Shown here in pieces: positions 23,910 through 62,016 of a DNA stretch of 64,000 nucleotides. The position numbers were made by a program, and so were the translations under genes. Position 1 is the stretch's first letter. Every line of letters begins with the position of its first letter. Origin of the DNA: Vicinamibacteria bacterium. Its GTDB lineage: Bacteria; Acidobacteriota; Vicinamibacteria; Fen-336. The notes below the pieces were generated by a model that was given only the letters and a program-made list of their open reading frames with translations, was not told the DNA's origin and did not search any database. The stretch is from contig JBFWVE010000001.1 in assembly GCA_050246895.1 (NCBI GenBank), positions 826,722 through 890,721 of the forward strand, given 5' to 3'.

Positions 23910-24974
23910 TCAGGCCCGCAGCAGCACGGCGCCCCAGTGCAGGCCGCCGCCGATGGCGACCATCAACACGAGCTGCCCGGGCTTGATGCGGCCCTCGCGC
24001 ACGCACTCGTCCCAGAGCAGGGGAATCGTGGCGGCGGTGGTGTTGCCGTACTTCTGGATGTTGCTGTAGACCTTCTCGTCGGGCAGGCCCAGCGACTTCT
24101 GCACGTAGCTGTTGATGCGCAGGTTGGCCTGGTGCATCAGCACCATGTCCACGTCGCCGAGGCTGTAGCCGTTGCGCTTCAGCAGCTCCTGTGACACCTC
24201 GGCCATGTGGATGGTCGCCAGCTTGAAGACCGCGCGCCCCTCGACGATCGGGATGTGGTCGCCGCGGTCGAGCTGCGCCTTGTCCACGTACGGCATGTGC
24301 TTGAAGCCGACGCCCGGCACGTAGAGCCGCTGATACTCGCGCCCGTCCGTGCGCAGGATCGAGTCGATCACGCCGCGCCCGTCGCCCTCCTGCGCCTTCA
24401 CGACCACGGCGCCCGCGCCGTCGCCGAACAGCACGATGCGGTCGCGCAGGGTCGTGTTGAAGGCGTAGTCCTCTGCGGAGACGGGCTCCTCGCGCCGCCC
24501 GTAGATGCGGTCCCAGCTCGCCTGCGAGTACGGCATGAAGCCCGCGTGGATCTCGGCGCCGATCAGCAGCACCGTCTTCGCGAAGCCCGCCCGGATCTGC
24601 GCGTCCACCAGCTGCATGCCGTAGACGAAGCCGACGCACTGCTGGCGGATGTCGAAGCACGGCGCGTTCTGGATCTCGAGCTTGGCCTGGACGATGCCCC
24701 CGATGCCGGGGAAGTAGTGGTCCGGCGTCATCGTGGCGCAGACGACGAGATCGACCTCGTCCTTGGAGACGCCCGCCGCCTCGAGCGCCTTGCGCGCCGC
24801 CGCGGCGCCCAGGTCGGAGGTCGCGGTGCCAGGCGTGATGTAGTACCGCGTCTCGATGCCGCTGCGCTCGCGGATCCACTCGTCGCTCGTGTCCATCACG
24901 CGCGCGAGCATCTCGTTGGTCACGCAGTTGGGCGGGATCTCGCGGCCACTGCCGACGATCACGGAGCGCGGCAT
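23910..24974 (-). CDS. fabH: 3-oxoacyl-ACP synthase III (KAS III)
   Basis: MPRSVIVGSGREIPPNCVTNEMLARVMDTSDEWIRERSGIETR... aligns along its full length with FabH, including the Cys-His-Asn regions. Confidence 0.85.
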   Translation of the reverse strand: MPRSVIVGSGREIPPNCVTNEMLARVMDTSDEWIRERSGIETRYYITPGTATSDLGAAAARKALEAAGVSKDEVDLVVCATMTPDHYFPGIGGIVQAKLEIQNAPCFDIRQQCVGFVYGMQLVDAQIRAGFAKTVLLIGAEIHAGFMPYSQASWDRIYGRREEPVSAEDYAFNTTLRDRIVLFGDGAGAVVVKAQEGDGRGVIDSILRTDGREYQRLYVPGVGFKHMPYVDKAQLDRGDHIPIVEGRAVFKLATIHMAEVSQELLKRNGYSLGDVDMVLMHQANLRINSYVQKSLGLPDEKVYSNIQKYGNTTAATIPLLWDECVREGRIKPGQLVLMVAIGGGLHWGAVLLRA

Positions 24975-25166
24975 CTGCTCCTCCTTCGATGAAGTCCGGG
25001 GTCCCGCGCCCCCGGATCGCCCGGCGTGCCTCGGGTGCGTGCGAGTCCCGGGACCTGAGACTGAGGCCCGGGGATTCTAGACCCCTGGACACCGGGCCGG
25101 GCGCCCCAGCCGGTCCTGCCGGCCGGTCGGGTTGCCGCGGCGTGCGGCGCGGCCTATCGTGGGCCC

Positions 25167-25607
25167 ATGCTCAAAGTCGGCGACGCCGCGCCCGACTTTC
25201 CGATCGGCGAGACGACGCTGCAGCGCATCCTGAAACAGCGCGAGGTGGTGGTCTTCTTCTTCCCCAAGGCGTTCACCCCGGGCTGAACGCGCGAGGCCGG
25301 CGGGTTCCGCCGGAACTATGACGCGCTGCGCCAAGCGGGCGCCGAGGTGGTCGGCGTGTCGGCGGACAGCCAGCAGCGCAACGACGAGTTCGCGCGCTCG
25401 CTGGAGCTGCCGTATCCGCTGGTCGGCGACCCGCAAGGCCGCATCCTGGAGGCCTACAGGGCGAAGTGGCCGGTGATCGGCATGGCCCAGCGCGTGAGCT
25501 ACGTGATCGGCCGCGACGGGCGCGTGCGCGAGGCCTACCGCAGCGAGCTCGACGCCGAGTCGCACGTCGCCCAGGCCTGCTCCGTGCTGTCGACGCCCGG
25601 CAGCTAG
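25167..25607 (+). CDS. Bcp/PrxQ-type peroxiredoxin with in-frame UGA (25284-25286) at the peroxidatic-Cys position; predicted selenoprotein
   Basis: The frame reads MLKVGDAAPDFPIGETTLQRILKQREVVVFFFPKAFTPG-TGA-TREAGGFRRNYDALRQAGAEVVGVSADSQQRNDEFARSLELPYPLVGDPQG.... It is collinear with E. coli Bcp, where ...YFYPKAMTPGCTVQAC... places Cys at the TGA. Track ORF 25347..25607 is the tail of this frame. A SECIS-like hairpin follows the UGA. Confidence 0.6.
25297..25313 (+). promoter_or_regulatory. SECIS-like hairpin (CCGGCGG-GUU-CCGCCGG) starting 10 nt 3' of the UGA in the Bcp-like gene
   Basis: A perfect 7-bp stem with a G-U-U apical triloop, seen directly. Position and shape match bacterial SECIS elements. 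Confidence 0.45.
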
Positions 25608-25644
25608 CCCTCGGCCGGCCGCGCGGTGCTAGCCTTCGTGCCGC

Positions 25645-26340
25645 ATGCCGTCGGTCAGCATCGTGTTCCCGATGTACAACGAGGAGGCCTACATCCACCG
25701 CGCCGTGCGCGCGGCGCGGGCGGCGCTCGCCCCGATCACCGAGGACTGGGAGATCGTGATCGTCGACGACGCCTCGAGCGACCGCACCGGCGCGCTGGCG
25801 GACGAGCTGGCGGCCGCCGAGCCGCGCATCAAGGTGGTCCACAACGCGCGCAACCGCCAGCTCGGCGGCTCGCTGCGGGCGGGTTACGCCGTCGCCACGA
25901 AGGAGCTCGTCGTCTACACGGACGCCGACCTGCCGTTCGACCTGATGGAGCTGCCTCGCGCCGTGCGGCTGCTCGAGTACCAGGAGGCCGACGTGCTGTC
26001 GGCCTTCCGTTTCGACCGCCGCGCGGAAGGCATCCGCCGCACGGCTTACACGCTCGTCTACAACGCGCTGATCCGGACGCTGTTCGGCCTCAGCTTCAAG
26101 GACGTGAACTTCGCCTTCAAGCTCTTCCGGCGCTCGCTGCTCGAGCGCTTCGAGCTGAAGAGCGAAGGCAGCCTGATCGACGTCGAGTTCCTGGTTCGCG
26201 CCCGAAAGGCCGGCGCTCAGATCATCCAGATCGGCGTCGACTACTTCCCGCGCACGCGCGGCGTCTCGACGCTCTCCTCGCCCGCAGTGATCCTGGGGAT
26301 CCTGCGCGAGCTCGCGCAGCTCTGGCGCGAGCTGCGCTAG
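25645..26340 (+). CDS. GT2-family glycosyltransferase (polyprenol-phosphate mannose/glucose synthase-like)
   Basis: ...VFPMYNEEAYIHRAV... and ...EIVIVDDASSDRTG... give the DxD-type GT-A fold. Length is 231 aa. The stop overlaps the convergent gene's stop at a CTAG. Confidence 0.85.
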   Translation: MPSVSIVFPMYNEEAYIHRAVRAARAALAPITEDWEIVIVDDASSDRTGALADELAAAEPRIKVVHNARNRQLGGSLRAGYAVATKELVVYTDADLPFDLMELPRAVRLLEYQEADVLSAFRFDRRAEGIRRTAYTLVYNALIRTLFGLSFKDVNFAFKLFRRSLLERFELKSEGSLIDVEFLVRARKAGAQIIQIGVDYFPRTRGVSTLSSPAVILGILRELAQLWRELR

Positions 26341-26999
26341 GCCTCGGCGGCCTTCTTGACGTGCTCGAGCAGCATCGTCTCGGGGCCGGCGCCCACGAAC
26401 TCCTGCGCCTCGCCGACCACCGTCTTCGGCACGCCCGAGATGCGGTACCTGCGCGCGAGGTCGGGGTAGCCCGTGACCTCGACGCCGTCGGCCGTGACCT
26501 TGTCGCTCTCGATCGCGAACTGGATCGCCAGGCGGACCGCCCGGGGGCAGTGCGGTCAGGTCGGAGTCGAGAAGACCTGGACGTGGACGGGCTTCTCGAG
26601 CGCCGCCAGGGCTTCCTTCGTCGCCGGCTGCAGCTGGCTCTCGCCGGCCGAGACGTCGAGGATGGCGTCGATCAGCGAGCCGAACTCGTAGCCGCTCGGC
26701 ATCCCGTACATGCGGATGCCGAAGTCCTTCTCGGCGCCCAGCACCGCGATCGCGGGGATGCGCGCGATGCCCATCGCCTCGGCCTTGTCCTTGTCGAGCA
26801 CGTAGTTGTACGACTCGGCCGTGAGCTTCGGGTGCAGCGCGCCGAGCTCCTCGACCAGCCGCCGCACCTGCTCCGAGTTCGGATCCGCGAGCGTCTGCGA
26901 GAAGACGGCCAGCCGCACCGGGTTCTTCAGCGACTCGAACTCCGTCTTGAGCTGCGACGCGACGTCGTCTGAGATGAGAGCCATGCTGCGTCCTTTCAC
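26337..26999 (-). CDS. Two-thioredoxin-fold protein (PDO/AhpF-N-terminal-domain-like) with UGA (26556-26558) as first residue of a UxxC redox motif; predicted selenoprotein
   Basis: Track ORF 26556..26999 ends ...HVQVFSTPT at a TGA. The same frame continues PHCPRAVRLAIQFAIESDKVTADGVEVTGYPDLARRYRISGVPKTVVGEAQEFV... (cis-Pro 'GVPKT' of thioredoxin folds) to TAG at 26337. TPT-U-PHC-P is a textbook Sec-x-x-Cys motif. A SECIS-like hairpin follows. Confidence 0.6.
26528..26544 (-). promoter_or_regulatory. SECIS-like hairpin (CCGGGCG-GUC-CGCCUGG) starting 11-12 nt 3' of the UGA in the thioredoxin-like gene
   Basis: A 7-bp stem (one G-U pair) with a G-U-C triloop, the same architecture as the hairpin in the Bcp-like gene. 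Confidence 0.45.
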
Positions 27000-27149
27000 G
27001 AGCAGTATAGCGCCGCGCTTTCGGTCGGGCCGCCCGGCCTCAGCGCGCCCGGCCGAGGATCAGCACGCCTGCAGCGAGCGTCAGCAGCGTGACCGGAACG
27101 CCGACGCGCAGGTACTCGCCGAAGGCGGACGCCGACGGTCAGCACGCCG

Positions 27150-43638: not shown

Positions 43639-44697
43639 CTATTCGTAGCGGACGAGAGAGACCTTCAGCCGGCGCTCCTGCTGCGCCGAGGGCAGCCACT
43701 GGATCAGGATCGGGCTCTGGTACTTCCCGAGCACCACCGGCCCGCAGCCGTCGGAGAGCAGGAAGCTCACCTGCCGCCGCAGGCGCAGGAAGCGCACGGC
43801 CGGGTAGGAGATCGCGCGCACCAGCAGGCGCTCGAACGACGACTGGCTGATGCCGAGCGCCGCCATCGTCTCGTTGAAGATGTGGATCAGGTCGTAGCTC
43901 ACGTAGTCGAGCGTCTTGTGCGGCACGGCGCGCGGGTCGCGCAGGACGTTGCGAGCCTTCAGGGCCATGAAGTGCAGCGGGTTCCTCAGCACCTCGGGCA
44001 GGTCGTGCCGCATCAGCAGCGTCTCGAACTCGTTGACCGTGAGGCCCGCGTGGCGCTCGCCCGGTGACAACGACAGGTCGAGCCGGCCGCGCCCGATGCC
44101 GAGCTGGCGCGCGCGGTCCGCGATCTCCTCGAGCAGGCCCAGCCGGGAGTCGCGCAGGTTGAGCGAGTCGACGGAGTGGCCCGAGACCGGGAAGCCCCGC
44201 TCGAAGGTCTCGACCACCTGCTCCCGGTTGTAGCCGACGATCGTGGTCTGCCGCTCGCGGCTCCCCTGCGGGCCGACGCCGTCGAGGTCGATCAGGTAGA
44301 CGGGCGAGGGCCCGCGCTGGACGTAGGTCGCGCAGTTGCTGAGCCCCGACGAGATGTAGGCGAGGTGCGAATCGCCGTTGCGCGGCTCGCTCACGCGCTG
44401 CTCGTCCGAGAGGTCCTCGCGCAGCTCGATCCGGTCGTGCCGGTAGTCGGCGCCGGAGGGGAACACGTTCTGGAACGCCCGCATGAAGGGATCGACGCGC
44501 TCGCGGCTGTGGTCGAGGCGGGCGAGCAGCGCCTGGTCCAGGTAGCCGGCGGTCGTGTGATAGGAGCAGTAGGTCGCGCGGCGATACGAGCGGAGGATGT
44601 CCCCGTGGTCCCTTTCGAGCACCCCGGTCACATCGATCGCATCGTAACGTCCGCGCGGCCGGAGGCGGAGGGTGAGCTCCGCAGGCTCGGCCGTCAT
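43639..44697 (-). CDS. YjbQ/UPF0047-like protein with C-terminal extension
   Basis: Start taken at the internal Met (MTAEPAELTLRL...). ...YCSYHTTAGYL... and ...GADYRHD...NGDSHLAYISSGLSNCATYV match YjbQ core motifs. About 170 extra C-terminal residues are of unknown function. Confidence 0.5.
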   Translation of the reverse strand: MTAEPAELTLRLRPRGRYDAIDVTGVLERDHGDILRSYRRATYCSYHTTAGYLDQALLARLDHSRERVDPFMRAFQNVFPSGADYRHDRIELREDLSDEQRVSEPRNGDSHLAYISSGLSNCATYVQRGPSPVYLIDLDGVGPQGSRERQTTIVGYNREQVVETFERGFPVSGHSVDSLNLRDSRLGLLEEIADRARQLGIGRGRLDLSLSPGERHAGLTVNEFETLLMRHDLPEVLRNPLHFMALKARNVLRDPRAVPHKTLDYVSYDLIHIFNETMAALGISQSSFERLLVRAISYPAVRFLRLRRQVSFLLSDGCGPVVLGKYQSPILIQWLPSAQQERRLKVSLVRYE

Positions 44698-44822
44698 TCG
44701 GCCCCTATGGTGGCACGGGGAGGCGCTCGGCTCAAAGTCCAGCACCCAGCACCCCGCTTCGCCCGGGCACGCTTCATGCTGCCGCATTCCGGCAAGCGGT
44801 TCCTCGGAAGCTGCAGGGGGGC

Positions 44823-46553
44823 GTGCCGATGGTCTCCGAGCCGAGAGAGCTGGAAGCCCGCATCGACGAGCTCGCCGGGCAGCTCGCCGACGTGCGCCTG
44901 CGGCTCGTGGCGTTGGAGCGGCAGCGAACGGAGCCCGCGCTCCCGGCGGCGGGCGCGGCTTCGGAGCGGGTGGCGGGAGCGCAGGCGACGCTCGCCTCCG
45001 GGGAGGTTCCGGCCGAACCCGCCACCTGGGTGGCGCTGGCCGGTCGTGGCCTGCTCGTCCTGGGCGGCGCCTACCTGCTGCGCGCGCTGACCGACGAGGG
45101 CCTGGTTCCGCCTGGGCTGGGACTCGCCCTGGGCCTCGGCTACGTGGCCTTCTGGCTCCTCCTCGCCGACCTGCGGAGGGCCCCCGAGCGCGCCGCCGGC
45201 ACCGCCGTGGCCGGCATCGTCGCGCTGCTGGTCGGGTTCCCGCTCGTGCTGGAGAGCGTGGCGCGCTTCCGCATTCTCGGCGAGGCGGGTGGCGCCGCCT
45301 GCGTCCTCGCGCTGTTCTGGGCCGGGCTCGTGGTCGCCCGCCGCCGCGGCCTCGTCGTGCTCGCCTGGCTCGCCACGCTGGGCGCGCTCGGGGCCTCGTT
45401 CGGCCTGCTGATCGGCACGCGCCGGCTGGTGCTGTTCACCGCCCTGATGCTGCTGATCGCGGCCCGGGTCGAGGCGCTCGCGTTCCGCGATCGCTGGCTG
45501 GGCCTGCGCTGGCCCACCGCCGCCGCCGTCGACGCCGCGCTGGCGCTGGCGCTGACGCTCGCGCTGCGCGAGGGCGGGCCACCCGAGAGCTACGCGCCGC
45601 TCTCGCTCGAGGCCGTCGCCGCGCTCGGCCTGCTGCTGCCGCTGCTCTACCTGGGCGGCGCCGCGCTGCGCACGCTGCTGCACGACCGGCCGGTGGCGGC
45701 GTTCGAGGCCGCGCAGACGCCCCTGGCACTGATCCTCGGCCTGGGTGGCGCGTCGCGGGCGCTGGCCGCCGCAGGCGTCAGCGGCGCGTGGGTGGGGGTC
45801 GAGGCGCTGCTGCTCGGTCTGGGCTGTTACGCCGCCGCCTTCGGTGCGATCGAGCGGCGCGCGGGCCAGGGGCTGACCTTCTACGCCTACACCAGCCTGG
45901 GTGTCGTGCTGGCACTCTCCGGCAGCTCCCTGATCCTGCCGCCTCTCGCGCTCGCCGCTCTGTGGTCGCTGCTGGCGGTGGCGGCCGCCTACGCAGGAGT
46001 CCGCTACGGCCGGGCCACGCTGCGCTCTCACGCGGTGGTGTTCCTGGCCGCGGCCGGCGCCGTCTCGGGGCTGCTCGGCGGCGCGGGGCGCGCGCTGACG
46101 GCGTCGAGCGGCGGCGCTCCGCCGCTCGGCGCCGGCGCGCTGTTGGCGCTCGCCGCGATGGCGGCGGCCTACGTCCTGCTCGAGCGTGCCGGTGACGGCG
46201 AGCCCGCGCAACTGATGCCGAGGCTGGCCGCGCTGGCGCTGCTGGGCAGCGGCCTGCTGGGCACGTCGGTGGCGGTGCTCGCCGGCCTGCTCGGCGCGAA
46301 CGCCGACGCCGGCTGGCTGGCGGCCGTCCGCAGCGCGGGCATCGCGGGCGCCGCCGTGGTGCTCGCCGCCGGCGGACGCAGCCCGCGTCGCCCGGAGCTC
46401 GCCTGGCTCAGCTATGCGACGCTCGGCCTGGGAGCGCTGCACCTGCTGGCGGACGACCTGCCGCACGGGCGGCCCGCCACCTTGATGGTGGCGTTCGCGC
46501 TCTACGGAGGCGCTCTGCTCGTCGTCCCGCGCCTGCTGGCAACGCGCCGCTGA
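44823..46553 (+). CDS. Polytopic integral membrane protein with N-terminal coiled-coil (hypothetical)
   Basis: A coiled-coil-like ELEARIDELAGQLADVRLRLVALE precedes at least 12 hydrophobic segments. The product is Ala/Leu/Gly-rich but follows a regular TM periodicity, unlike the antisense ORFs. Confidence 0.6.
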   Translation: MPMVSEPRELEARIDELAGQLADVRLRLVALERQRTEPALPAAGAASERVAGAQATLASGEVPAEPATWVALAGRGLLVLGGAYLLRALTDEGLVPPGLGLALGLGYVAFWLLLADLRRAPERAAGTAVAGIVALLVGFPLVLESVARFRILGEAGGAACVLALFWAGLVVARRRGLVVLAWLATLGALGASFGLLIGTRRLVLFTALMLLIAARVEALAFRDRWLGLRWPTAAAVDAALALALTLALREGGPPESYAPLSLEAVAALGLLLPLLYLGGAALRTLLHDRPVAAFEAAQTPLALILGLGGASRALAAAGVSGAWVGVEALLLGLGCYAAAFGAIERRAGQGLTFYAYTSLGVVLALSGSSLILPPLALAALWSLLAVAAAYAGVRYGRATLRSHAVVFLAAAGAVSGLLGGAGRALTASSGGAPPLGAGALLALAAMAAAYVLLERAGDGEPAQLMPRLAALALLGSGLLGTSVAVLAGLLGANADAGWLAAVRSAGIAGAAVVLAAGGRSPRRPELAWLSYATLGLGALHLLADDLPHGRPATLMVAFALYGGALLVVPRLLATRR

Positions 46554-46614: not shown

Positions 46615-47805
46615 TCAGGCCTGCTGCTGCGTCTGCGCGGCCTCGTGCTGCCACGGCGGCAGCAGCTTCACCAGCAGCCACAGGATGCCGAAGGGCAGCA
46701 GCATCACCAGGATCGCGGGCAGCATTCCCTCGCGCGTGGCGAAGCCCATCTTGTAGGTCGTGTAGCCGAGGAAGCTCTTCGAGAAGAGCTGCCCGCCGAT
46801 CACCACGTTCCAGCGCATCGCGAAGATCCCGATCAGGGTCAGCGCTCCCGCCAGCACGTAGAGCCCGCGGCGGGCGGCGCCCGACAGGTTGACCACCTGC
46901 ACGAAGGCCAGGATCGCGATCGGCAGCACCGCGCCCAGCATGATCTGCAGCACGATCTGCGACGTATAGAGCTTGGTGTGCACCATGAAGTCGAGCGTCT
47001 TGAAGGACTCGTCGGCCTCGTAGATGCGGTGCAGGATGTCGAGCAGCTCCAGCGAGAAGTCGACCACGAACGCGTAGAGCAGGTAGCGCGCGGTGGTGTC
47101 GACGCAGCTCATGTCGATCTGCCGGCCTTTTAGCCAGGTGACCAGCATGTACATCAGCAGCACCAGCGCGATGCCCGAGACGATCGCCGAGAACAGGAAC
47201 ACGATCGGCATCAGCGGCGTCGACCACCAGGGGTTCGCCTTGATCGAGCCGAAGATGAAGCCGACGTAGCCGTGCAGCAGGAAGGCGGAGGGGATGCCGA
47301 TCAGCGTCACGAACCAGCCGACCCTGTCGTCGACGCGCAGGGCCCCCTCGCTGATGTTGTCGGAGCCCAGCGTCAGCGCCTTGTAGAGCAGCCGCCTCGG
47401 CCCGCTCGAGCTGCGCGCGAGCAGCACGATGTCCTTGCGGTAGTCGAGCCAGATCTCCAGCAGCAGCACCGCCATCAGGTACCACAGGTAGACGAAGCCG
47501 AACATCGCCATCGCCGACGAGGTGTGCGGCGTGAGGTACATCTCGAACGAGCGCTCCGGCCTGCCGAGGTGCATCTGCAGCGGCAGCGGCGCGACGATCA
47601 GGAACGACAGCGCCGTCAGCAGCGCCAGCCGGTAGGTGGGCTTGACCGCCTCGACGCGGAAGATCCGCTCCAGCGAGGCCAGGATGAAGGCGCCGGCCAC
47701 CAGCCCCGTGATGAACGGGTAGAGCACGATCAGGACACTCCACTGCAGCTCGATCTCGTTCGGGTACATGAAGCCTTCGACGCCGTGCAGCAGGCTCTCT
47801 TGCAT
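46615..47805 (-). CDS. NrfD/PsrC-family quinol-interacting membrane subunit
   Basis: The 396-aa protein has 8-10 TM helices (…LVIAPLPLQMHLGRPERSFEMYL…) typical of NrfD/PsrC, and sits downstream of the FeS subunit. Confidence 0.9.
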   Translation of the reverse strand: MQESLLHGVEGFMYPNEIELQWSVLIVLYPFITGLVAGAFILASLERIFRVEAVKPTYRLALLTALSFLIVAPLPLQMHLGRPERSFEMYLTPHTSSAMAMFGFVYLWYLMAVLLLEIWLDYRKDIVLLARSSSGPRRLLYKALTLGSDNISEGALRVDDRVGWFVTLIGIPSAFLLHGYVGFIFGSIKANPWWSTPLMPIVFLFSAIVSGIALVLLMYMLVTWLKGRQIDMSCVDTTARYLLYAFVVDFSLELLDILHRIYEADESFKTLDFMVHTKLYTSQIVLQIMLGAVLPIAILAFVQVVNLSGAARRGLYVLAGALTLIGIFAMRWNVVIGGQLFSKSFLGYTTYKMGFATREGMLPAILVMLLPFGILWLLVKLLPPWQHEAAQTQQQA

Positions 47806-47815
47806 GTGGCTCTCC

Positions 47816-48580
47816 CTAACGCACCGAGCCGTCGAGGCCCGCGTAGTAGACCTTGGAGCCCGTCGCCATCTGCGGCTTCAGCACCTGCACCTTGTGCGTG
47901 CGCAGGAACTCGTGGATCGGGTCCGCCGGGTTCTTGAGGTCGGCCAGCACGCGCGCGCCGGTCGGGCAGCTCTCGCAGCAGGCGGTGGTCAGCCCCTTGG
48001 TGATGCGGTGGTAGCAGAGGTTGCACTTGTCGACCGTGTTGGTGCGCGGGTCGATGAAGCGGCACCCGTAGGGGCAGGCCTGCACGCAGTAGCGGCAGCC
48101 GAGGCAGTAGGACTTGTCCACCAGCACGACGCCGTCCGGGGACTCGAAGGTGGCCCCCACCGGACACACCTGCACGCAGGGCGAGTGCGCGCAGTGGTTG
48201 CACAGCTTGGGCACGAAGAAGTTCTTGGAGCCGTCGCCCGGGCGGTACTTCTCGGGGAAGCCGTCGTAGCCGCCGTTCGGCGAGTCCACCTGCGGGTGCT
48301 CGATGTCGCCGCCCGGCACGTGGTAGCGCTCGACCCAGGTCCTGAAGTAGTACGGTTCGCGCGGGACGTCGTTCTCTTCCTTGCAGGCGCGCACGCAGTT
48401 GCCGCAGCCGATGCACTTCTCGACGTCGATCGCCATCGCCCACCAGTGCTCGCTGAGCTTGTAGTTCGGGGCGGCCTCGGGCGTGCCCGCGAGCACGCTG
48501 TCCCAGGCGCTGGCGGCGGCTCCCGTCAGCAGCAGCCAGGTCGTCGACTTCGCGAGGAACTCCCGGCGGTCGGTAGTCAC
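47816..48580 (-). CDS. 4Fe-4S ferredoxin-type subunit (NrfC/PsrB/DmsB-like) with Tat signal
   Basis: A GTG start follows a GGAGGA RBS. The Tat-like …TTDRREFLAKSTTWLLLTGAAASA and four CxxCxxCxxxCP clusters (CIGCGNCVRAC, CNHCAHSPCVQVCP, CLGCRYCVQACP, CNLCYHR…CCESCP) are present. Confidence 0.85.
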   Translation of the reverse strand: MTTDRREFLAKSTTWLLLTGAAASAWDSVLAGTPEAAPNYKLSEHWWAMAIDVEKCIGCGNCVRACKEENDVPREPYYFRTWVERYHVPGGDIEHPQVDSPNGGYDGFPEKYRPGDGSKNFFVPKLCNHCAHSPCVQVCPVGATFESPDGVVLVDKSYCLGCRYCVQACPYGCRFIDPRTNTVDKCNLCYHRITKGLTTACCESCPTGARVLADLKNPADPIHEFLRTHKVQVLKPQMATGSKVYYAGLDGSVR

Positions 48581-49050
48581 TTGCGTTCCTCCGGTGGCGA
48601 GCCGGGCTCGTGCGGCGAGTGGCACTCGATGCACAGACCCGTCTCGGCGTGGTCCTTGGGCACGATCTGCGGGAAGCTCGCGGGCTTGGCGACGTTCGCG
48701 ACGTGGCAGACGAGGCAGGTCGTGCGGCCGTCGGGCCGCGCGGGCTTCTGCTCCGGGTCCGCGGCGTGGGCGGCGAGGGCGCCGTGGCAGGCTTCGCAGG
48801 CGACGCGCGCGTGCTTGCCGGCCGCTCGCTTCGTGCCGACGTCGTCGTGGCAGGCGAGGCAGTCGGCCTGGCCGGCGAACCTGGCCGGGCGGACCTGGTT
48901 GTCCGCGATCGCGCCGGCGCGGAAGTGGCCGTACACGCCGAAGTCCGCCGGCACCAGGAACACCCGGGCCAGCAGGAACAGCGCGATGCCGGCGACGCAC
49001 AGCCCGGCCACGCGCACGAGGTGGTCGGCGTCCCGGAACAGCTCTCTCAT
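48577..49050 (-). CDS. Membrane-anchored tetraheme c-type cytochrome (NrfH/cyt c3-like)
   Basis: An N-terminal TM helix is followed by four CxxCH motifs (CLACH, CEACH, CLVCH, CIECH). The stop overlaps the FeS-subunit start. Confidence 0.8.
   Translation of the reverse strand: MRELFRDADHLVRVAGLCVAGIALFLLARVFLVPADFGVYGHFRAGAIADNQVRPARFAGQADCLACHDDVGTKRAAGKHARVACEACHGALAAHAADPEQKPARPDGRTTCLVCHVANVAKPASFPQIVPKDHAETGLCIECHSPHEPGSPPEERK

Positions 49051-51016: not shown

Positions 51017-51020
<4 letters not shown>
50706..51020 (-). CDS. Small BMC-locus protein: N-terminal amphipathic helix, coiled-coil, C-terminal Cys/His-rich tail (hypothetical)
   Basis: The ATG overlaps the upstream BMC-P stop as ATGA. 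The product reads MTLDDSRIRELTAEVLQKLRE...DLERRVAALERAVRAL...HVCVLEPGKPCVGSGQCRTFGH. Confidence 0.5.
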
Positions 51021-51289
<269 letters not shown>

Positions 51290-51293
51290 TGAA

Positions 51294-51557
51294 CTACACG
51301 TTCCAGTGATCGACGATCCCGACGATCGCGGCGTCGGCGGGCACGTCGTCGGGCAGGAAGGGGAAGCAGGCCTCGCGGCCGCGCACGTAGAAGACGTCCT
51401 CGCCGGCGCCGGCGCCGACCGAGTCGACCGCGACCAGGGGCTTGCCCGCGGACGAGCGGTCGGTGCGCAGCGGCTGGATCAGCAGCAGCTTGATCCCGCT
51501 GAGCCCGGGATCCTTGCGGGTGGCGACCACGGTGCCGACGACGCGGGCGAGCAGCAC
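51294..51557 (-). CDS. BMC vertex (pentamer) protein, EutN/CcmL/PduN family, paralog 2
   Basis: MLLARVVGTVVATRKDPGLSGIKLLLIQPL...; 87 aa. Confidence 0.85.
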   Translation of the reverse strand: MLLARVVGTVVATRKDPGLSGIKLLLIQPLRTDRSSAGKPLVAVDSVGAGAGEDVFYVRGREACFPFLPDDVPADAAIVGIVDHWNV

Positions 51558-51561
51558 GGCC

Positions 51562-51831
51562 TCAGTCCTTGACCTCGACGCTGTCGACGACGCCCACCAC
51601 CGCCGCGTCCACGGGGCAGTCCTTGAGGCCGGACGCCATCCGCGCGGAGGAGCCGGTCACGATCAGCACCTTGTCGCTGAGACCCGCATCCACCGTGTCG
51701 ACCGCCACCATGTAGGCCGCTTCGTCCTTGCCCCTCGGGTCGACCTGGCGCACCACCAGCAGCTTCGCCCCCAGCAGGCGCTCGTCCTTGCGGGTGGCGA
51801 CCACGGTGCCGACGACGCGGGCCAGGATCAA
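51562..51831 (-). CDS. BMC vertex (pentamer) protein, EutN/CcmL/PduN family, paralog 1
   Basis: MILARVVGTVVATRKDERLLGAKLLVVRQV...; 89 aa. Confidence 0.85.
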   Translation of the reverse strand: MILARVVGTVVATRKDERLLGAKLLVVRQVDPRGKDEAAYMVAVDTVDAGLSDKVLIVTGSSARMASGLKDCPVDAAVVGVVDSVEVKD

Positions 51832-51835
51832 ACGC

Positions 51836-52120
51836 CTACTTCGCGGCCTTGCCGATCGGCAGCACGTCTTCGAGGTTCGCGTGCGGCCGCGGGATCACGT
51901 GGACCGAAACCAGCTCGCCCACGCGGCGTGCGGCGGCGGCGCCGGCGTCGGTGGCGGCCTTGACGGCCGCGACGTCCCCGCGCACGAGTGCCGTCACGTA
52001 GCCCGAGCCGATCTTCTCGTAGCCGACCAGCGTGACCTTGGCGGCCTTCACCATGGCGTCCGCAGCCTCGATCATGGCCACGAGACCCCGGGTCTCGATC
52101 ATCCCCAGCGCTTCACCCAT
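51836..52120 (-). CDS. BMC hexamer shell protein (BMC-H; PduA/EutM/CcmK family)
   Basis: [56 protein letters not shown]... is the canonical BMC-domain sequence. Confidence 0.9.
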
Positions 52121-52217
52121 GCAGCCTCCCTGCGGCCTTCCCGGTTCTCGTCCCTTCGAAAGACCCTGACTCTACCCCCCGCGGAGGGCCCGTCAAGTCG
52201 GCCCGGAGCGGCCCTCG

Positions 52218-52991
52218 TCAGCGCTGGCCCCCGGAAAAGCGCGCGACCGCCTCGCTCACGATCCGCAGCAGCTCGTCGCGCGACAGCACCACGCGGTCCT
52301 CGCCGCCGACGCTCACGCTGGTGCCGCACGACGGGCAGGGCACGCAGGCGGGCGGCGGGTAGCCCGCGCTCGTCCGCATCGACTCGAGCCGGGCGACGTC
52401 CCCGGCCGGCAGCGGGCGCTCGACCCCCAGGCTGCGCGCCGCGAGGGTCACCCGCGCGAGCTGCTCCAGCGTCTCCATGCGCTCCCAGGCGCGCAGCAGG
52501 CCGTCGCCGACGGCCAGCGCACCGTGGTTCGCCAGCAGCAGCGCGTGGGCGTCGCAGATGGCGTCCCCTACGTTGCGCGCCAGCTCTTCGGTCGACGGCG
52601 TGCCGTAGGGAATCACCGGCACCGGCCCCAGCGTCACCACCGCCTCGGCCGTGATCGGCCGGTCGAGCGGGATGCCCGCGACGGCGAAGGCCGTGGCCGT
52701 CGGCGGGTGCGCGTGCACCACGGCCTTCACGTCGGAGCGCCGCTCGTAGATGGCCGCGTGCATCAGCGTCTCGGTCGAGACGCGCAGCGTGCCCGAGACC
52801 CGCGCGCCGCGCAGGTCGGCGCGCACGATCATGTCGGGGGTCAGGAAGCCCTTGCAGACGCCGGCGGGCGTGATCAGGATGCCCTCGGCGTCGCGCAGCG
52901 AGATGTTGCCCTCGTTGCCGCTGATCAGCCCGCGCGCGTAGAGGCGGCGCCCGACCTCGACGATCGCCTCGCGCGCGGCCCGCTCGTCCAA
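52218..52991 (-). CDS. Class II aldolase/adducin-family protein (fuculose-phosphate-aldolase-like) with ~50-aa C-terminal extension
   Basis: ...GNEGNISLR..., ...AVVHAHPP... and ...LLANHGALAVG... are the class II aldolase motifs. The C-terminal tail PPACVPCPSCGTSV...SRDELLRIVSEAVARF contains an amphipathic helix. Confidence 0.85.
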   Translation of the reverse strand: MDERAAREAIVEVGRRLYARGLISGNEGNISLRDAEGILITPAGVCKGFLTPDMIVRADLRGARVSGTLRVSTETLMHAAIYERRSDVKAVVHAHPPTATAFAVAGIPLDRPITAEAVVTLGPVPVIPYGTPSTEELARNVGDAICDAHALLLANHGALAVGDGLLRAWERMETLEQLARVTLAARSLGVERPLPAGDVARLESMRTSAGYPPPACVPCPSCGTSVSVGGEDRVVLSRDELLRIVSEAVARFSGGQR

Positions 52992-53897: not shown

Positions 53898-54938
53898 CTA
53901 CGACCAGTTGACGCCTGACCAGCGAAGCAGCACGGTGCCGACGGTGAAGCCGGCGCCGACGCTGGCGAGCAGCACCAGGTCGCCCTTCGCCAGGCGCTTC
54001 TCGTCGAGGGCGGTCGCCAGCGCCAGCGGGATGGTGGCCGCCGTGGTGTTGCCGTAGCGGTCGATGTTCCTGATCACGCGCTCCTCGGGCAGCTTCAGCC
54101 GGTCCTTGGCGGCGTCGATGATGCGCAGGTTCGCCTGGTGCGCCACGAACAGGTCGAGCTGCTCCGACGGCACGCCGTTCTTCTCGAGCAGTGCCTTCGA
54201 GCTGTCGGCCATCTTGCGCACCGCATACTTGAAGACGTGGCCGCCCTCCTGGCGCACGAAGTGCATGCGCTGGTCGACCGTCTCGTGCGAGGCCGGCTTC
54301 GCGCTGCCGCCGGCGGGCATGTGCAGGTAGCAGCCGCCCGAACCGTCCACCTCGTGCGCGTAGTCGAGGATGCCGGTGTCGTCCTGCGAGGGCTCGAGCA
54401 GCACGGCCCCGGCGCCGTCGCCGAACAGCACGCAGGTCGCGCGATCCTGGAAGTCGAGGATCGAGGTCATCACGTCGGCGCCGATCACCAGCACCTTCCC
54501 GTGCGCCCCGCTCTCGACGAACTGGGCGCCCACGGTGAGCGCGTAGGTGAAGCCCGAGCAGGCCGCCGAGACGTCGAAACCCCAGGCCCGGCGGGCGCCC
54601 AGCTTGTCCTGCACCAGGCACGCGGTGGCGGGGAAGACCATGTCCGGCGTGACGGTGCCGACCACGATCAGGTCGATCTCCTCCGGCCCCACGCCGCGCC
54701 GCTCCAGGCACTCCCGCGCCGCCCGCAGCGCGAGCTCGCTGGTGGGCGTGCCGGGCTCGGCGTAGCGGCGCTCGCGGATGCCGGTGCGCGTGCGGATCCA
54801 TTCGTCCGTGGTGTCGACGATCTTCTCGAGATCGGCGTTGGTGACGACCCGCTCGGGCAGATAGCGTCCGAGGGACGTGATGGCCGCTCGCTTGCGCGTC
54901 ATGCTCCTCTTCTCTTTCCGGGAAACCGGGCCCTGCAA
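53898..54938 (-). CDS. 3-oxoacyl-ACP synthase III (KAS III), second paralog
   Basis: ...[43 protein letters not shown]... is FabH-like throughout. The alternative start Met at 54902 ([12 protein letters not shown]) is more typical than the track start. Confidence 0.8.
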
Positions 54939-56466: not shown

Positions 56467-57471
56467 CTGCGCGTCCTGATCGTCGGTGGCAACCGCTACA
56501 TGGGCTACGGCCTGACCTGGCGCCTGCTCGCGCGCGGGGACGAGGTCACCCATTTCCACCGCGGCACGCACCCCGATCCCTTCGGCGAGCGGGTCACCCG
56601 TCTCGTCGGCGACCGCCGCGGCGGCGACTTCGCACGGCTGCTCGCCGGACGCAGCTTCGACGCGGCCGTGGACTTCGCGGCCTTCGAGGCGGGCGACGTC
56701 GAGTCCGCGCTCGCCGTTCTCGAGGGACGCGTCGGGCACTACGTCCTGATCAGCACGGGCCAGGTCTACCTGGTGCGCGAGGGCTGCCCCTGGCCCGCCT
56801 CCGAGATGGACTACGAGGGCGCTCTGATGCCCCGCCCCGCCGATCCGCGCGACGGCTCGGAGTGGGACTACGGCATGGGCAAGCGCGGCTGCGAGGACGC
56901 CCTCGCTCGTGCGTTCGCCGCGAGCCGCTTCCCGGCGACACGGCTGCGCATCCCGATGGTGGACGGCGAGCGAGACCACCTGCGGCGCTTCGAGGCCTAC
57001 CTGTGGCGCATCCTCGACGGCGGGCCGGTGCTGGTCCCCGAAGGCGATCTGCGGCCCGTGCGCCACGTCTACGCGGGCGCCGTGGTGCGTGCGATCGCCG
57101 ATCTGCTGGGCCGCGCCGACAGCCACGGCCAGGCCTACAACCTCTCGCAGGACGAGATGCCGCCGCTGCCGGAGCTCGTCGGCGTGATGGCCGGAGCGCT
57201 GGGTGCCCGCCCACGCGTCGTGCCGGTGCCGGCAGCGCGCCTGGCCGAAGCGGGCCTCGACCTGCGTTCGGTCTCGCCGTTCTCGAGCCGCTGGATGTCG
57301 TGCCTCGAGCCTGCCCGCGCCAAGAGAGAGCTGGGCTTCCGCCACGAGCCGCTCCAGGAATACGTCGGCCGCATCGTCGCGTCGTTCCTGGCCCACCCGC
57401 CCGCGGACCAGCCGCCAGCCTACGTCGCCAGCCGCCCCGTCGAACTGGCGTTGGCCGCGCGGCTCTCCTGA
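56467..57471 (+). CDS. NAD-dependent epimerase/dehydratase-family (extended SDR) protein
   Basis: No ATG, GTG or TTG lies before the Rossmann motif; the best candidate is a CTG at 56467, 7 nt after a GGAGG that directly follows the PaaI stop (m/LRVLIVGGNRYMGYGL...). The C-terminal part of track ORF 55648..57471 carries the YxxxK region. Confidence 0.7.
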   Translation: MRVLIVGGNRYMGYGLTWRLLARGDEVTHFHRGTHPDPFGERVTRLVGDRRGGDFARLLAGRSFDAAVDFAAFEAGDVESALAVLEGRVGHYVLISTGQVYLVREGCPWPASEMDYEGALMPRPADPRDGSEWDYGMGKRGCEDALARAFAASRFPATRLRIPMVDGERDHLRRFEAYLWRILDGGPVLVPEGDLRPVRHVYAGAVVRAIADLLGRADSHGQAYNLSQDEMPPLPELVGVMAGALGARPRVVPVPAARLAEAGLDLRSVSPFSSRWMSCLEPARAKRELGFRHEPLQEYVGRIVASFLAHPPADQPPAYVASRPVELALAARLS

Positions 57472-57575: not shown

Positions 57576-58235
57576 TCACTCGAGCCGCAGGCCCACGAAG
57601 AGGAACCGGCCCTTCGCTTCCTCCGGCTTCACCTCGACCACGGCTGCGGTGCGGCCGCTGGCGCCGTCCTTCAGCTCGAGCTGGAAGGCGTAGCCCTCCG
57701 CCGTGGCCCAGTCGAGCACGTAGAGCCCGCCGCTGCGGTCGATCGGAACGTCGAGACGCGACTCCGTCTGCGCCAGCTCGAGGTCGCCCAGCGCCACGAC
57801 TCCCTCCTGCTCGACGCGCCGGAGCCGCAGGAACACGGTGTCGTGGCGGCGCGCGGCCAGCACCTCGAGCTTCGGCGCGAACACGACGCTGCGGGCCGCC
57901 GCCACGGCATCGGAAGAGGCGGGCGGGGCGACCACGAAGGCCGCGGCGGGACCGGGGCCCGTGCGCGACTCGAGCAGCGCGCGGACGTCGCGAAGCTCGC
58001 GAACGAGCGCAGAACGCTCCTCGCGCGACTCGGCCTGCGCGTTCTCCAGCGAGCCGAGGCGCGCCTCGAGCCTGCCGATCGCGCGCAGCGCACGCTCACC
58101 GGCATCGTCCTGCTGCGCCTCCTGGGCCACGGCGCGCGTTGCGCCAGCCCCCGTGAGGACCAGCGCGACGCCGAGCATCAGGGCGCCGGCGAGGGGCGGG
58201 CGCTCGGTGCGTCGAGGCAGAGCTGAAGCGAGCAT
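57576..58235 (-). CDS. Hypothetical secreted coiled-coil protein
   Basis: The internal Met start gives a signal peptide (MLASALPRRTERPPLAGALMLGVALVLTGAGATRAVAQ), followed by a coiled-coil-like segment and a beta-rich C-terminus. Confidence 0.5.
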   Translation of the reverse strand: MLASALPRRTERPPLAGALMLGVALVLTGAGATRAVAQEAQQDDAGERALRAIGRLEARLGSLENAQAESREERSALVRELRDVRALLESRTGPGPAAAFVVAPPASSDAVAAARSVVFAPKLEVLAARRHDTVFLRLRRVEQEGVVALGDLELAQTESRLDVPIDRSGGLYVLDWATAEGYAFQLELKDGASGRTAAVVEVKPEEAKGRFLFVGLRLE

Positions 58236-58303
58236 GGAAACCTCCGCGCCTATTCTCTGCCCTGGCGCCCTGCCCGCCGGGGAGCCGGCGATCGCGCCGG
58301 CGG

Positions 58304-60070
58304 TCACGGCACGTCGAAGGTCGTCGTGGCCGCAGCCAGGCGTCCGCCGCTGTGGCGGACGACCACGGTGAGGTGATAGCCGCCCTTCTTGCGCGGCGCG
58401 AGCACCGACGCAGCAATCTCGAGGTCGTCCCGGGCGAGCAGTTCCGCGTGCCGCCCCGGTGAGAGCTTCATCGCGACCGACCGGGCGAAGAAGTAGCGCT
58501 TGCCGACCGGCCTGCCGCCGGCGTCACGCAGCAGCGCCTGCAGCTCGACCTCGCCGAAGCGCTGGCCGTCGACCTCGCGAAAGACGAGGGCCTTCGTCGG
58601 CAGCAGCGCGACCACCTTGACCTCGCCGGCCTCCACTCGAGCCTCCACCGCGAGCCCGTCCTCCGCGAAGAGCCCGGGGAACAGCGCCGCCTGGTCGATC
58701 GAGCGCTCGGCCCGCTGCACGTCGCTCAGCCACTCGTACCCCTTGCGGTAGCGCAGCGAAAGCCCGGGACGCGCGACCTTCAGCTCGATCCGGTAGAAGC
58801 GGCCCGCCTTGCGCCCCGGCGGAGGCGCATAGGCGAGCAGGTAGTAGCCCCGGCTGTCCGTCATGGCCGCCTGCATGCCGCGCCGGAGGTCGTTGCTGTT
58901 GACGGACGCCACGGCCCCAGTCTGATCGGCCAGCGTGCGCAGGATCTCCTGCGGCTCGCGCAGGGCGCGGCCCTGCACCGATTGGAGGACGCCCTGGCTC
59001 ACCATCCGCGTCGTCACCGCGGAGGTGGCCGAAGGAACCGCCTCGGCGCCGGGACCGCCCAGGCCGCGCGCATCCACCGTGTACACCGACACCTGGGCTC
59101 GGTTGGCCTCGTCGAGCACGGCTCGCAGCAGCCGGGTCGAGTCGACCTGCGTGCCGCTCAGCGACGTATAGGTCTGGGACATCCCCAGGCCTGCCCGGCC
59201 TCCCCCGCAAGCCCCGTCCACGATCTCAGTGACGGTGGCGGCCGGCCGCATCGAATACCCAGCCGAGTAGAAGGCCACCTGCTTGCGGCCCGCCAGCGGC
59301 GCCAGATAGCGGGCGAGCGCGGCCAGCCCCTCCATCGCGACGGTCGTTCCCTGCTTCGCGTTCGCCAGGTAGACCCTGGCGAGCGACAGCGCGTTGCTCG
59401 GGCCCCCGCTGGTGCCGTCGCAGCTCCGGTTGACGTCCTCCACGAAGCTCGCGAAGGTCGCCTCGGAGTTGCCCGCAGACGGCTTCAGCGCCTCGACGGC
59501 GGCCACGAAGGCCGCGAGGTCGTCGGTGAACGGCTGGCGGATCTGCACGCCGCGGTCGAGGGCCACCAGCATCAGGCGCGTGCCGGGATCGACCTGCTCG
59601 CGGGCCATCGAGACGATGGCCTGGCGAGCCAGCACCAGGGCATCGGCCGGCGTCGTGTAGAGGTCGACGACCACCACCAGCGCGGGCGGCGCGCCCCCAG
59701 CCGTTCCCGGGGCCTCGGGCGAAGGCCGGTGGCCGGAAGGCTCGGGCGGCGCGGGCGAGACGACGCCCGGCATGACCGCCGGCGCTCCCTCGCGCGCTGC
59801 GACGAAGCGCACGAACTCGAGCCGCTGCGGCTTTCCCTCCTCGAAGACCTGGATCTCGTCGGCCCGCAGGTCCGTCACCGGGCGGCCGTCGCGGCCGCTG
59901 GCGATCAGGTCGATCAGCACCAGATCCACGCTCGCGCCGAAGGCGGGCCTCTGCTGAGGCGTCGCGCGCGAGGTCACGAGGGCCGCGGCCAGGCCCGCGA
60001 ATGCGACCACCACAAGGCCCAGGCCGCGGCGCGGCAAGGGCGCGCGGGCTTCCGTTGGAAGGCGCCGCAT
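58304..60070 (-). CDS. Secreted VWA-domain protein (VWFA-related acidobacterial-type), paralog 1
   Basis: Start taken at the Met 147 residues into the track ORF (MRRLPTEARAP... signal anchor). The ...LVVVVDLYTTP... VWA fold, ...VSVYTVDARGLGG... and a conserved C-terminal beta-domain are present. Confidence 0.8.
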   Translation of the reverse strand: MRRLPTEARAPLPRRGLGLVVVAFAGLAAALVTSRATPQQRPAFGASVDLVLIDLIASGRDGRPVTDLRADEIQVFEEGKPQRLEFVRFVAAREGAPAVMPGVVSPAPPEPSGHRPSPEAPGTAGGAPPALVVVVDLYTTPADALVLARQAIVSMAREQVDPGTRLMLVALDRGVQIRQPFTDDLAAFVAAVEALKPSAGNSEATFASFVEDVNRSCDGTSGGPSNALSLARVYLANAKQGTTVAMEGLAALARYLAPLAGRKQVAFYSAGYSMRPAATVTEIVDGACGGGRAGLGMSQTYTSLSGTQVDSTRLLRAVLDEANRAQVSVYTVDARGLGGPGAEAVPSATSAVTTRMVSQGVLQSVQGRALREPQEILRTLADQTGAVASVNSNDLRRGMQAAMTDSRGYYLLAYAPPPGRKAGRFYRIELKVARPGLSLRYRKGYEWLSDVQRAERSIDQAALFPGLFAEDGLAVEARVEAGEVKVVALLPTKALVFREVDGQRFGEVELQALLRDAGGRPVGKRYFFARSVAMKLSPGRHAELLARDDLEIAASVLAPRKKGGYHLTVVVRHSGGRLAAATTTFDVP

Positions 60071-60081
60071 GGTCTCCCTCG

Positions 60082-61806: not shown

Positions 61807-61982
61807 GCCCATCACCTCCACGATAGACGTCGGCGCGAGCGCGCCATCCCCCGATTGTGCGCCTTGAACGCCACCCCGGCCAGCCTGCAGCAGCTTAGTC
61901 GCCCCGCGTGGCTCGCTGGTTCGGATGGCTTGATGGTCACGGTGCACTCGCGGCGTGCCGCGGCCGGCATCGGAGCGGAACG

Positions 61983-62016
61983 AAAAAAGGGGCGCCCCCG
62001 CCAACGGGAGCGCCCC
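61983..62016 (-). terminator. Rho-independent terminator of the outer-membrane receptor gene (GGGGCGCUCCCGUUGGCGGGGGCGCCCC + UUUUUU on the minus-strand RNA)
   Basis: Seen directly: a 7-bp GC stem followed by an A6 run on the plus strand (U6 in the transcript), about 50 nt after the stop at 62063. Confidence 0.7.

Follow-up and report, generated by a model that had tools for sequence, protein, structure and literature searches.

A Bcp/PrxQ-like peroxiredoxin gene with UGA at its peroxidatic position, a predicted selenoprotein of Vicinamibacteria

In a 64,000-nucleotide stretch of DNA from a Vicinamibacteria bacterium (GenBank assembly GCA_050246895.1, contig JBFWVE010000001.1, positions 826,722 to 890,721; hereafter the window, in whose own numbering the coordinates are given), the reading frame of a small peroxiredoxin is interrupted by a single TGA exactly where enzymes of the Bcp/PrxQ type carry their catalytic cysteine. 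The question raised by this locus is whether the TGA ends a broken gene or encodes selenocysteine (Sec). An earlier note, made from the letters of this DNA alone, favoured the latter and pointed to a hairpin resembling a bacterial selenocysteine insertion sequence (SECIS) just behind the codon, and this core reading is supported by comparative data. It is considered quite probable that 25167-25607 is one intact Bcp/PrxQ-like peroxiredoxin gene belonging to a Sec-encoding clade, with Sec as the peroxidatic residue. This reading is preferred because the UGA falls on the column of the catalytic Cys, is conserved in 16 sequences, is followed by a hairpin specific to the TGA forms, and is accompanied by a second redox gene with a UGA of its own.

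The reading frame and the conservation of its UGA

The predicted coding sequence lies on the plus strand at 25167..25607 and would encode a Bcp/PrxQ-like protein of 146 residues with Sec at residue 40 (PKAFTPG-U-T). Its frame runs from ATG 25167 to TAG 25605-25607 and is interrupted only by the TGA at 25284-25286, which occupies the position of the peroxidatic Cys in the PxxxTxxC motif. The N-terminal part read from the ATG is MLKVGDAAPDFPIGETTLQRILKQREVVVFFFPKAFTPG, and its beginning, MLKxGDxAPDF, agrees with the N-termini of full-length homologues. The Bcp/PrxQ frame, its start, and the location of the TGA had all been described in the earlier note and are present; of its further statement that 107 codons follow the TGA, the open frame up to the TAG stands, and the number has to be read as 106 sense codons plus the stop. 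The list of open reading frames (ORFs) indeed holds only the tail of the gene, 25347..25607. The public record bears out the claim that standard ORF calling would miss the gene: in the NCBI record, the genes on its two sides, FabH-like (MGE0452811.1) and GT2 (MGE0452810.1), carry consecutive accessions, and therefore the peroxiredoxin between them has no protein entry.

When the stop is replaced by Cys, the predicted protein matches the Pfam AhpC-TSA family (PF00578) end to end, covering 1-123 of the 124 model positions with 100 bits (cutoff 26; E = 1.2e-28). In an alignment of 110 full-length homologues, P33, C40, and R109 are invariant and T37 is nearly invariant, and the window protein has the corresponding active site, P33-K-A-F-T37-P-G-U40 together with R109. 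The top NCBIfam matches are Bcp PRK09437 (70.1 bits; cutoff 140) and PrxQ NF053650 (68.2 bits; cutoff 260), and the protein remains below the cutoff of every NCBIfam model that it matches, which leaves it in a Bcp/PrxQ-like branch without a dedicated model. The top PDB sequence matches, 3drn (7e-24), 5enu, 5epf, and 2a4v, are Bcp proteins. The fold was assessed on the AlphaFold model of P0001, the closest Cys homologue (66% identical; predicted local distance difference test, pLDDT, 97.3), for which the best structures found by Foldseek are 5epf (M. tuberculosis BcpB) and 3drn (S. solfataricus Bcp1), with template modelling scores (TM-scores) of 0.90-0.91. Because the NCBIfam scores lie under the cutoffs and Bcp proteins provide the best sequence and fold matches, the predicted protein is classed as a divergent Bcp/PrxQ-like branch and not as an equivalog of E. 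coli Bcp.

Relatives were sought with the Cys-substituted protein as the query, and the contigs of short C-terminal matches were fetched and read as DNA. The protein search returned full-length Cys homologues by the hundred, with at most 66% identity, and also matches of 83-90 residues, 65-99% identical, covering the C-terminal part only. All of these short matches turned out to be gene tails, with TGA at the same column and a conserved upstream part (...FFFPKAFTPG*TREA..., where the asterisk stands for the TGA). When GTDB species genomes were scanned for the C-terminal portion of the peroxiredoxin, TGA was detected at the peroxidatic column in four metagenome-assembled genomes (MAGs) of Acidobacteria/Vicinamibacteria and in four Thermoanaerobaculia genomes, 31-33% identical, three of the four with records titled chromosomes; other Acidobacteria, Myxococcota, and one archaeon have TGC or TGT there. 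Altogether, TGA is kept at the Cys column in 16 distinct sequences, ranging from 99% to ~31% identity and having intact flanking frames, which were obtained from four data sources (Logan, ENA, JGI, and NCBI assemblies) and represent Vicinamibacteria-like and Thermoanaerobaculia genomes and metagenomes. Each of the 16 is free of further stops and frameshifts. Orthology is supported by synteny, the loci sharing an Lhr helicase, the divergent FabH-like gene before the peroxiredoxin, and the GT2 gene after it.

The alignment with Cys-containing Bcp orthologues, proposed in the earlier note as a check, puts the UGA (25284..25286, plus strand), which is predicted to be read as Sec and to supply the peroxidatic residue, on the same column as the residue that is Cys in all 110 full-length homologues. 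Decay of the frame past the TGA in relatives, which had been named as a sign of a pseudogene, is absent, the flanks being intact in 16/16 sequences. As judged from these alignments, the coincidence of the TGA with the column of the catalytic Cys, together with its conservation in relatives, is far beyond chance. The codon is otherwise used normally: among 41 coding-like ORFs of the window, TAG ends 22, TGA 18, and TAA 1, so that UGA is not reassigned genome-wide and serves as an ordinary stop in the window.

Two of the related sequences call for separate remarks. In L032 (278-721; JGI Ga0619460_04871298, protein P0009), the source rendered the Sec-UGA as Trp (TPGWT); the DNA has TGA and the same hairpin, and the Trp is an artefact of annotation by which a predicted selenoprotein is concealed. 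In L006 (75-272; NCBI JBFOMQ010178316.1), the part upstream of residue 17 is response-regulator-like (MRTVLIVDDS...); this short contig is probably chimeric, and it was disregarded upstream of that residue.

The downstream hairpin and its association with TGA

The SECIS-type hairpin occupies 25297..25313 on the plus strand and consists of a perfect 7-bp GC stem (CCGGCGG/CCGCCGG) with a GUU triloop; it begins 10 nt past the UGA, as the earlier note had reported, and its loop begins 17 nt past the UGA. In the bacterial SECIS model of PMC13188914 (Fig. 2 legend), the loop has 3-9 nt with G in the first two loop positions, the stem has 4-16 bp, the distance from the UGA is 16-37 nt, and the energy is <= -7.5 kcal/mol. 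The hairpin, having a 3-nt GUU loop, 7 bp, a distance of 17 nt, and an energy of -12.7 kcal/mol, falls within all four constraints.

More informative than this single structure is its distribution among the relatives. The hairpin is found at the same place in all 12 Vicinamibacteria-type TGA forms, and all 16 TGA forms have a hairpin that agrees with the SECIS model. Across 11 Vicinamibacteria-type relatives, 94.8% of the stem cells are paired, and third-codon positions are nearly invariant within the stem and variable just outside it. Double changes of the GC-to-AU type affect two of the stem pairs, one in L007 and one in L009, the 3′ change being synonymous in each. The Thermoanaerobaculia sequences (L028-L031, around position 9998; 31-33% identical) have a different hairpin of 8-9 bp, GGAUACCA-GGC-UGGUAUCU, whose GGC loop begins 23 nt past the UGA. 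The mean hairpin energy is -11.4 kcal/mol for the 16 TGA forms, compared to -2.2 kcal/mol for 11 Cys forms (Mann-Whitney p = 9e-6, a statistic that ignores phylogeny), and in the 11 Cys forms the hairpin is either outside the model or weak. In particular, the Cys form L017 encodes the identical A-G-G-F-R peptide yet lacks the hairpin, of which the 5′ stem arm remains, and L012, another Cys form, encodes the similar A-A-E-F-R-R and is missing the hairpin as well.

In a neighbour-joining tree, which is rough, carries no support values, and was used solely for the interspersion of the two forms, Sec forms appear at several places among Cys forms. Five of the Sec forms (L014, L015, L016, L018, and L032) are 57-63% identical to the window protein and have an identical hairpin. 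Because the same hairpin persists at such distances, the comparison suggests a Sec-encoding ancestor followed by repeated replacement of Sec by Cys. The clade is predicted to be Sec-encoding in many Vicinamibacteria-like bacteria, with remoter Sec relatives in Thermoanaerobaculia and with Cys relatives interspersed.

A second UGA gene and the rival readings of the codon

The window was also scanned for TGA codons with coding-like composition on both flanks. Exactly two such TGAs were found: one is that of the peroxiredoxin, and the other lies at 26558-26556 on the minus strand. The remaining in-frame UGA candidates, whether from the window or from the flanks of related loci, are obvious gene-junction artefacts. 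The second TGA belongs to a predicted selenoprotein gene at 26337..26984 (minus strand), ~1 kb from the peroxiredoxin, whose product of 215 residues is a homologue of protein disulfide oxidoreductase (PDO) and of the AhpF N-terminal domain and contains ...VQVFSTPT-U-PHCPRAV..., with a single active site, U143-P-H-C146. It scores 238.5 bits against NCBIfam TIGR02187 PDO_seleno_TRX (cutoff 185) and aligns over its full length with the P. furiosus PDO 1a8l (4.5e-40), the UGA being aligned with the first Cys in the CPYC of the C-terminal unit; the N-terminal CxxC is missing, as in the AhpF N-terminal domain. The protein shares with the TIGR02187 family two thioredoxin-fold units and a UxxC at the CxxC of the C-terminal unit, and there is no essential difference between them. 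It is a regular member of that family whose public record is truncated, the gene having been deposited as a 142-residue 'hypothetical protein' (MGE0452809.1) cut at the UGA.

The in-frame UGA of this PDO-like gene (Sec143; 26556..26558, minus strand) is conserved as well. The orthologue in L015, a Vicinamibacteria MAG, is 73% identical with TGA at the same column, and a metagenome scan of 22 close relatives gave TGA in 21 and TGC in 1. A SECIS-type hairpin, CCGGGCG-GUC-CGCCUGG, lies at 26528..26544 (minus strand) with an energy of -10.5 kcal/mol and a loop that begins 18 nt past the UGA; all 15 of the distinct TGA forms retain it, and L035, a close form with TGC, has lost it. The design of the hairpin is common to the peroxiredoxin and PDO-like genes, namely 7 bp, a G-U-N triloop, and a distance of 17-18 nt from the UGA. 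Two independent genes having UGA on a redox Cys and the same hairpin design constitute the best available indirect evidence of Sec decoding in this organism.

A number of results weigh against the selenoprotein reading or restrict what can be drawn from its individual supports. Within the 64-kb window there is no selA, selB, selD, or tRNA-Sec: ARAGORN identified tRNA-Gln only, Pfam scans of ~50 window ORFs gave no SelA, SelB, or SelD domains, and tRNA scans of 14 related loci detected no tRNA-Sec. Sec users are known among the Acidobacteria, namely Solibacter (PMC1794560) and Occallatibacter (PMC12013277), and [NiFeSe] hydrogenases have been reported from Acidobacteriota (PMC13582414); the use of Sec elsewhere in the phylum is not evidence for this particular genome. 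The hairpin by itself is weak evidence and not statistically exceptional at 72% GC, the window being 67-77% GC throughout. The fold of 25284-25340 has z = -1.0 against dinucleotide shuffles, 17.8% of the 1001 TGA trinucleotides of the window precede a model-compliant hairpin, and ~3.5% of them have one at least as stable (-12.7 kcal/mol). Fits to the SECIS model are cheap here because the DNA is GC-rich, and since such hairpin statistics are too weak alone, reliance has to be placed on the comparative data. Rfam yielded no SECIS family at the gathering threshold over the whole window, nor at E <= 10 over 25150-27050. The covariation is thin, as it comprises two pairs in one sequence each, and 21/500 shuffles do as well. 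The ratio of nonsynonymous to synonymous substitution rates (dN/dS) is less than 1 for the parts before and after the UGA. It is not decisive, since it is inflated by extreme codon bias and weakened by compressed synonymous divergence at 95% GC at third codon positions (GC3); a length difference also affects the upstream value for L007. Finally, the adjacency of peroxiredoxin and PDO-like genes is seen in two lineages only, window/L001 and L015/L042, and is missing at the other loci with 7-20 kb of context. An obligate operon of the two genes as a general rule is rejected.

Two other readings of the UGA have to be weighed against Sec. It could be argued that the gene is a pseudogene, or that a sequencing or assembly error created the TGA, so that a real stop leaves a dead peptide of 39 residues, which may or may not be accompanied by a C-terminal fragment of 86 residues starting at GTG 25347. 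Several gene-calling pipelines output precisely those fragments, and the gap between the flanking genes in the NCBI record would fit this reading too. However, different assemblers and different samples have yielded the same TGA, in 16 distinct sequences, the two halves are open and conserved with many synonymous differences, the C-terminal fragment is missing the whole active-site motif, and a point error would not yield a conserved, compensated hairpin as well. Such an origin appears extremely improbable, and it can be regarded as effectively refuted by the comparative data. The other reading accepts that the UGA is translated and holds that Cys or another standard residue is inserted, by a Cys-charged tRNA(Sec), by a selC*-type tRNA(Cys)UCA acting via SelB, or by near-cognate suppression. 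Some anaerobic bacteria are documented to have a tRNA(Cys)UCA that mimics tRNA(Sec) and suppresses opal codons, and Acidobacteria contain irregular suppressor-like tRNAs (PMC5389517); moreover, the tRNA scan of the window identifies no tRNA decoding UGA. On the other hand, selC* was reported from Firmicutes, Thermodesulfobacteria, Nitrospirae, and Proteobacteria, not from Acidobacteria (PMC5389517), the maintenance of UGA and SECIS in two acidobacterial classes beside TGC relatives would make little sense if the product contained Cys, and the family of the neighbouring PDO-like gene is already curated as a selenoprotein family. Insertion of a standard residue is considered very unlikely, and Sec at residue 40 is the reading followed below.

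Resolving residue, mechanism, and context

The Cys at +5 from the peroxidatic residue, the canonical resolving position of Bcp, is replaced by Gly in the window protein (U40-T-R-E-A-G45), as the earlier note had recognised. The one-Sec mechanism that it deduced from this replacement is probably wrong, because a conserved alternative is available in Cys138 (codon 25578..25580, plus strand), the sole Cys of the protein, which lies in the motif H-V-x-x-A-C of the C-terminal helix and is proposed to be the resolving residue. Among the 110 full-length homologues, the second Cys is C138 in 77, is in the alpha-3 region in 24, and is at +5, +8, or other positions in the rest; these positions are mutually exclusive, and 0/110 have the catalytic Cys alone. 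Every Sec form, even the distant ones of Thermoanaerobaculia, retains Cys138, which falls in helix 130-143 of the AlphaFold model of the 66%-identical Cys homologue. A resolving residue in the C-terminal helix is the arrangement of Prx5-type enzymes, not of Bcp. Because the alternative Cys positions are mutually exclusive and Cys138 is kept in the Sec forms, we infer that U40 forms a selenenylsulfide with Cys138. A genuine Sec-peroxiredoxin of the one-Sec type, in which an external thiol or thioredoxin reduces the selenenic acid and Cys138 is structural or irrelevant, would be in keeping with the Gly at +5 and with the existence of 1-Cys Bcp/PrxQ enzymes. This variant is nevertheless rather unlikely, as the Cys pattern in the 110 homologues is that expected for a relocated resolving Cys and all Sec forms, those of Thermoanaerobaculia too, retain Cys138.

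With U40 and Cys138 as the redox pair, the most likely sequence of events would be as follows. According to the bacterial SECIS model, the 17-nt hairpin, whose G-U loop begins 17 nt past the UGA, would recruit SelB, and SelB-bound Sec-tRNA(Sec) would recode the UGA at 25284. By analogy with the chemistry of the family, the selenolate of U40, placed in the site formed by P33, T37, and R109, would reduce the peroxide and be converted to selenenic acid, and the distribution of Cys in the homologues makes Cys138 the most likely residue to resolve it into a selenenylsulfide. A thioredoxin-fold protein might then reduce the selenenylsulfide, for which the adjacent single-site Sec-PDO/AhpF-N-terminal homologue is a speculative candidate. 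The neighbour is put forward because Bcp1, Bcp3, and Bcp4 of Sulfolobus are recycled by PDO and thioredoxin reductase (PMC7465337). That the two proteins make up a dedicated two-selenoprotein peroxide relay in soil Vicinamibacteria, in which the U40-Cys138 selenenylsulfide is reduced by the U-P-H-C protein, is quite unlikely on present evidence; if true, the relay would be a selenium version of the Sulfolobus Bcp/PDO/thioredoxin-reductase system.

Peroxiredoxins with a TxxU motif are an established family of bacterial selenoproteins, recognised since 2001-2006 (PMC13188914, PMC1794560), so that the earlier statement that Sec-peroxiredoxins are already known in bacteria is correct. The window gene has in common with this family (PF00578, TxxU; Zhang et al. 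2006, PMC1794560; PMC13188914) the AhpC/TSA domain, the PxxxTxxU motif, a SECIS hairpin just downstream within the coding sequence, and abundant Cys homologues; the listed members are mainly from Deltaproteobacteria, Clostridia, and Actinobacteria, whereas the window gene is from Vicinamibacteria (Acidobacteriota). PrxU of Eubacterium acidaminophilum (NF040737), which has been biochemically characterised as thioredoxin-dependent, also has Sec at the peroxidatic position; however, the window protein scores 33 bits against its cutoff of 270 and has 146 residues compared to 233 model positions, and it is not an equivalog of PrxU and represents a different peroxiredoxin subfamily. Bcp/PrxQ proteins (3drn, 5epf, PRK09437) are alike in size and in the PxxxTxxC...R active site and are the best sequence and fold matches; the window protein differs from them in having Sec for Cys and, instead of the +5 Cys, a Cys in the C-terminal helix. 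It is known that selenoprotein genes from different redox families can lie in clusters. In the literature searched, no paper was found on a Sec-PrxQ/Bcp clade, nor on one in Vicinamibacteria.

The main value of these predictions lies in the correction of annotation, and they do not overturn current understanding. The peroxiredoxin and PDO-like clades in Vicinamibacteria-like bacteria and related Acidobacteriota are split or dropped by gene callers, and their recognition would correct the antioxidant inventory and provide more Sec/Cys pairs for studying the retention of selenium. The compact hairpin design of the two genes, with 7 bp, a G-U-N loop, and a distance of 17-18 nt, could serve as a lineage-specific search pattern for more selenoproteins. 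The proposed relocation of the resolving Cys and the presence of a Sec-PDO nearby point to mechanistic variants that can be tested.

Several other features of the window were recorded. Two FabH-like (KAS III) paralogues are encoded on the minus strand, one at 23910-24974, divergent from the peroxiredoxin in an arrangement kept in several related loci, and the other at 53898-54938. An NrfD-type membrane subunit (46615-47805, minus strand) and a small multihaem cytochrome c (48577-49050, minus strand) are encoded near each other, possibly as components of a respiratory complex linked to quinol. Pfam gave no match at E <= 1e-5 for several large coding-like ORFs, those at 43639-44787 (minus), 44823-46553 (plus), 56500-57471 (plus), 57576-58307 (minus), 58304-60508 (minus), and 60082-62004 (minus). 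A microcompartment shell cluster at 51017-52991, identified by Pfam, comprises three tandem EutN/CcmL vertex genes (51017-51289, 51294-51557, and 51562-51831) and a BMC-domain gene (51836-52120), which are adjoined by a class II aldolase gene (52218-52991), all on the minus strand; we take its layout to recall a sugar-degrading compartment of the Planctomycete/Verrucomicrobia type.

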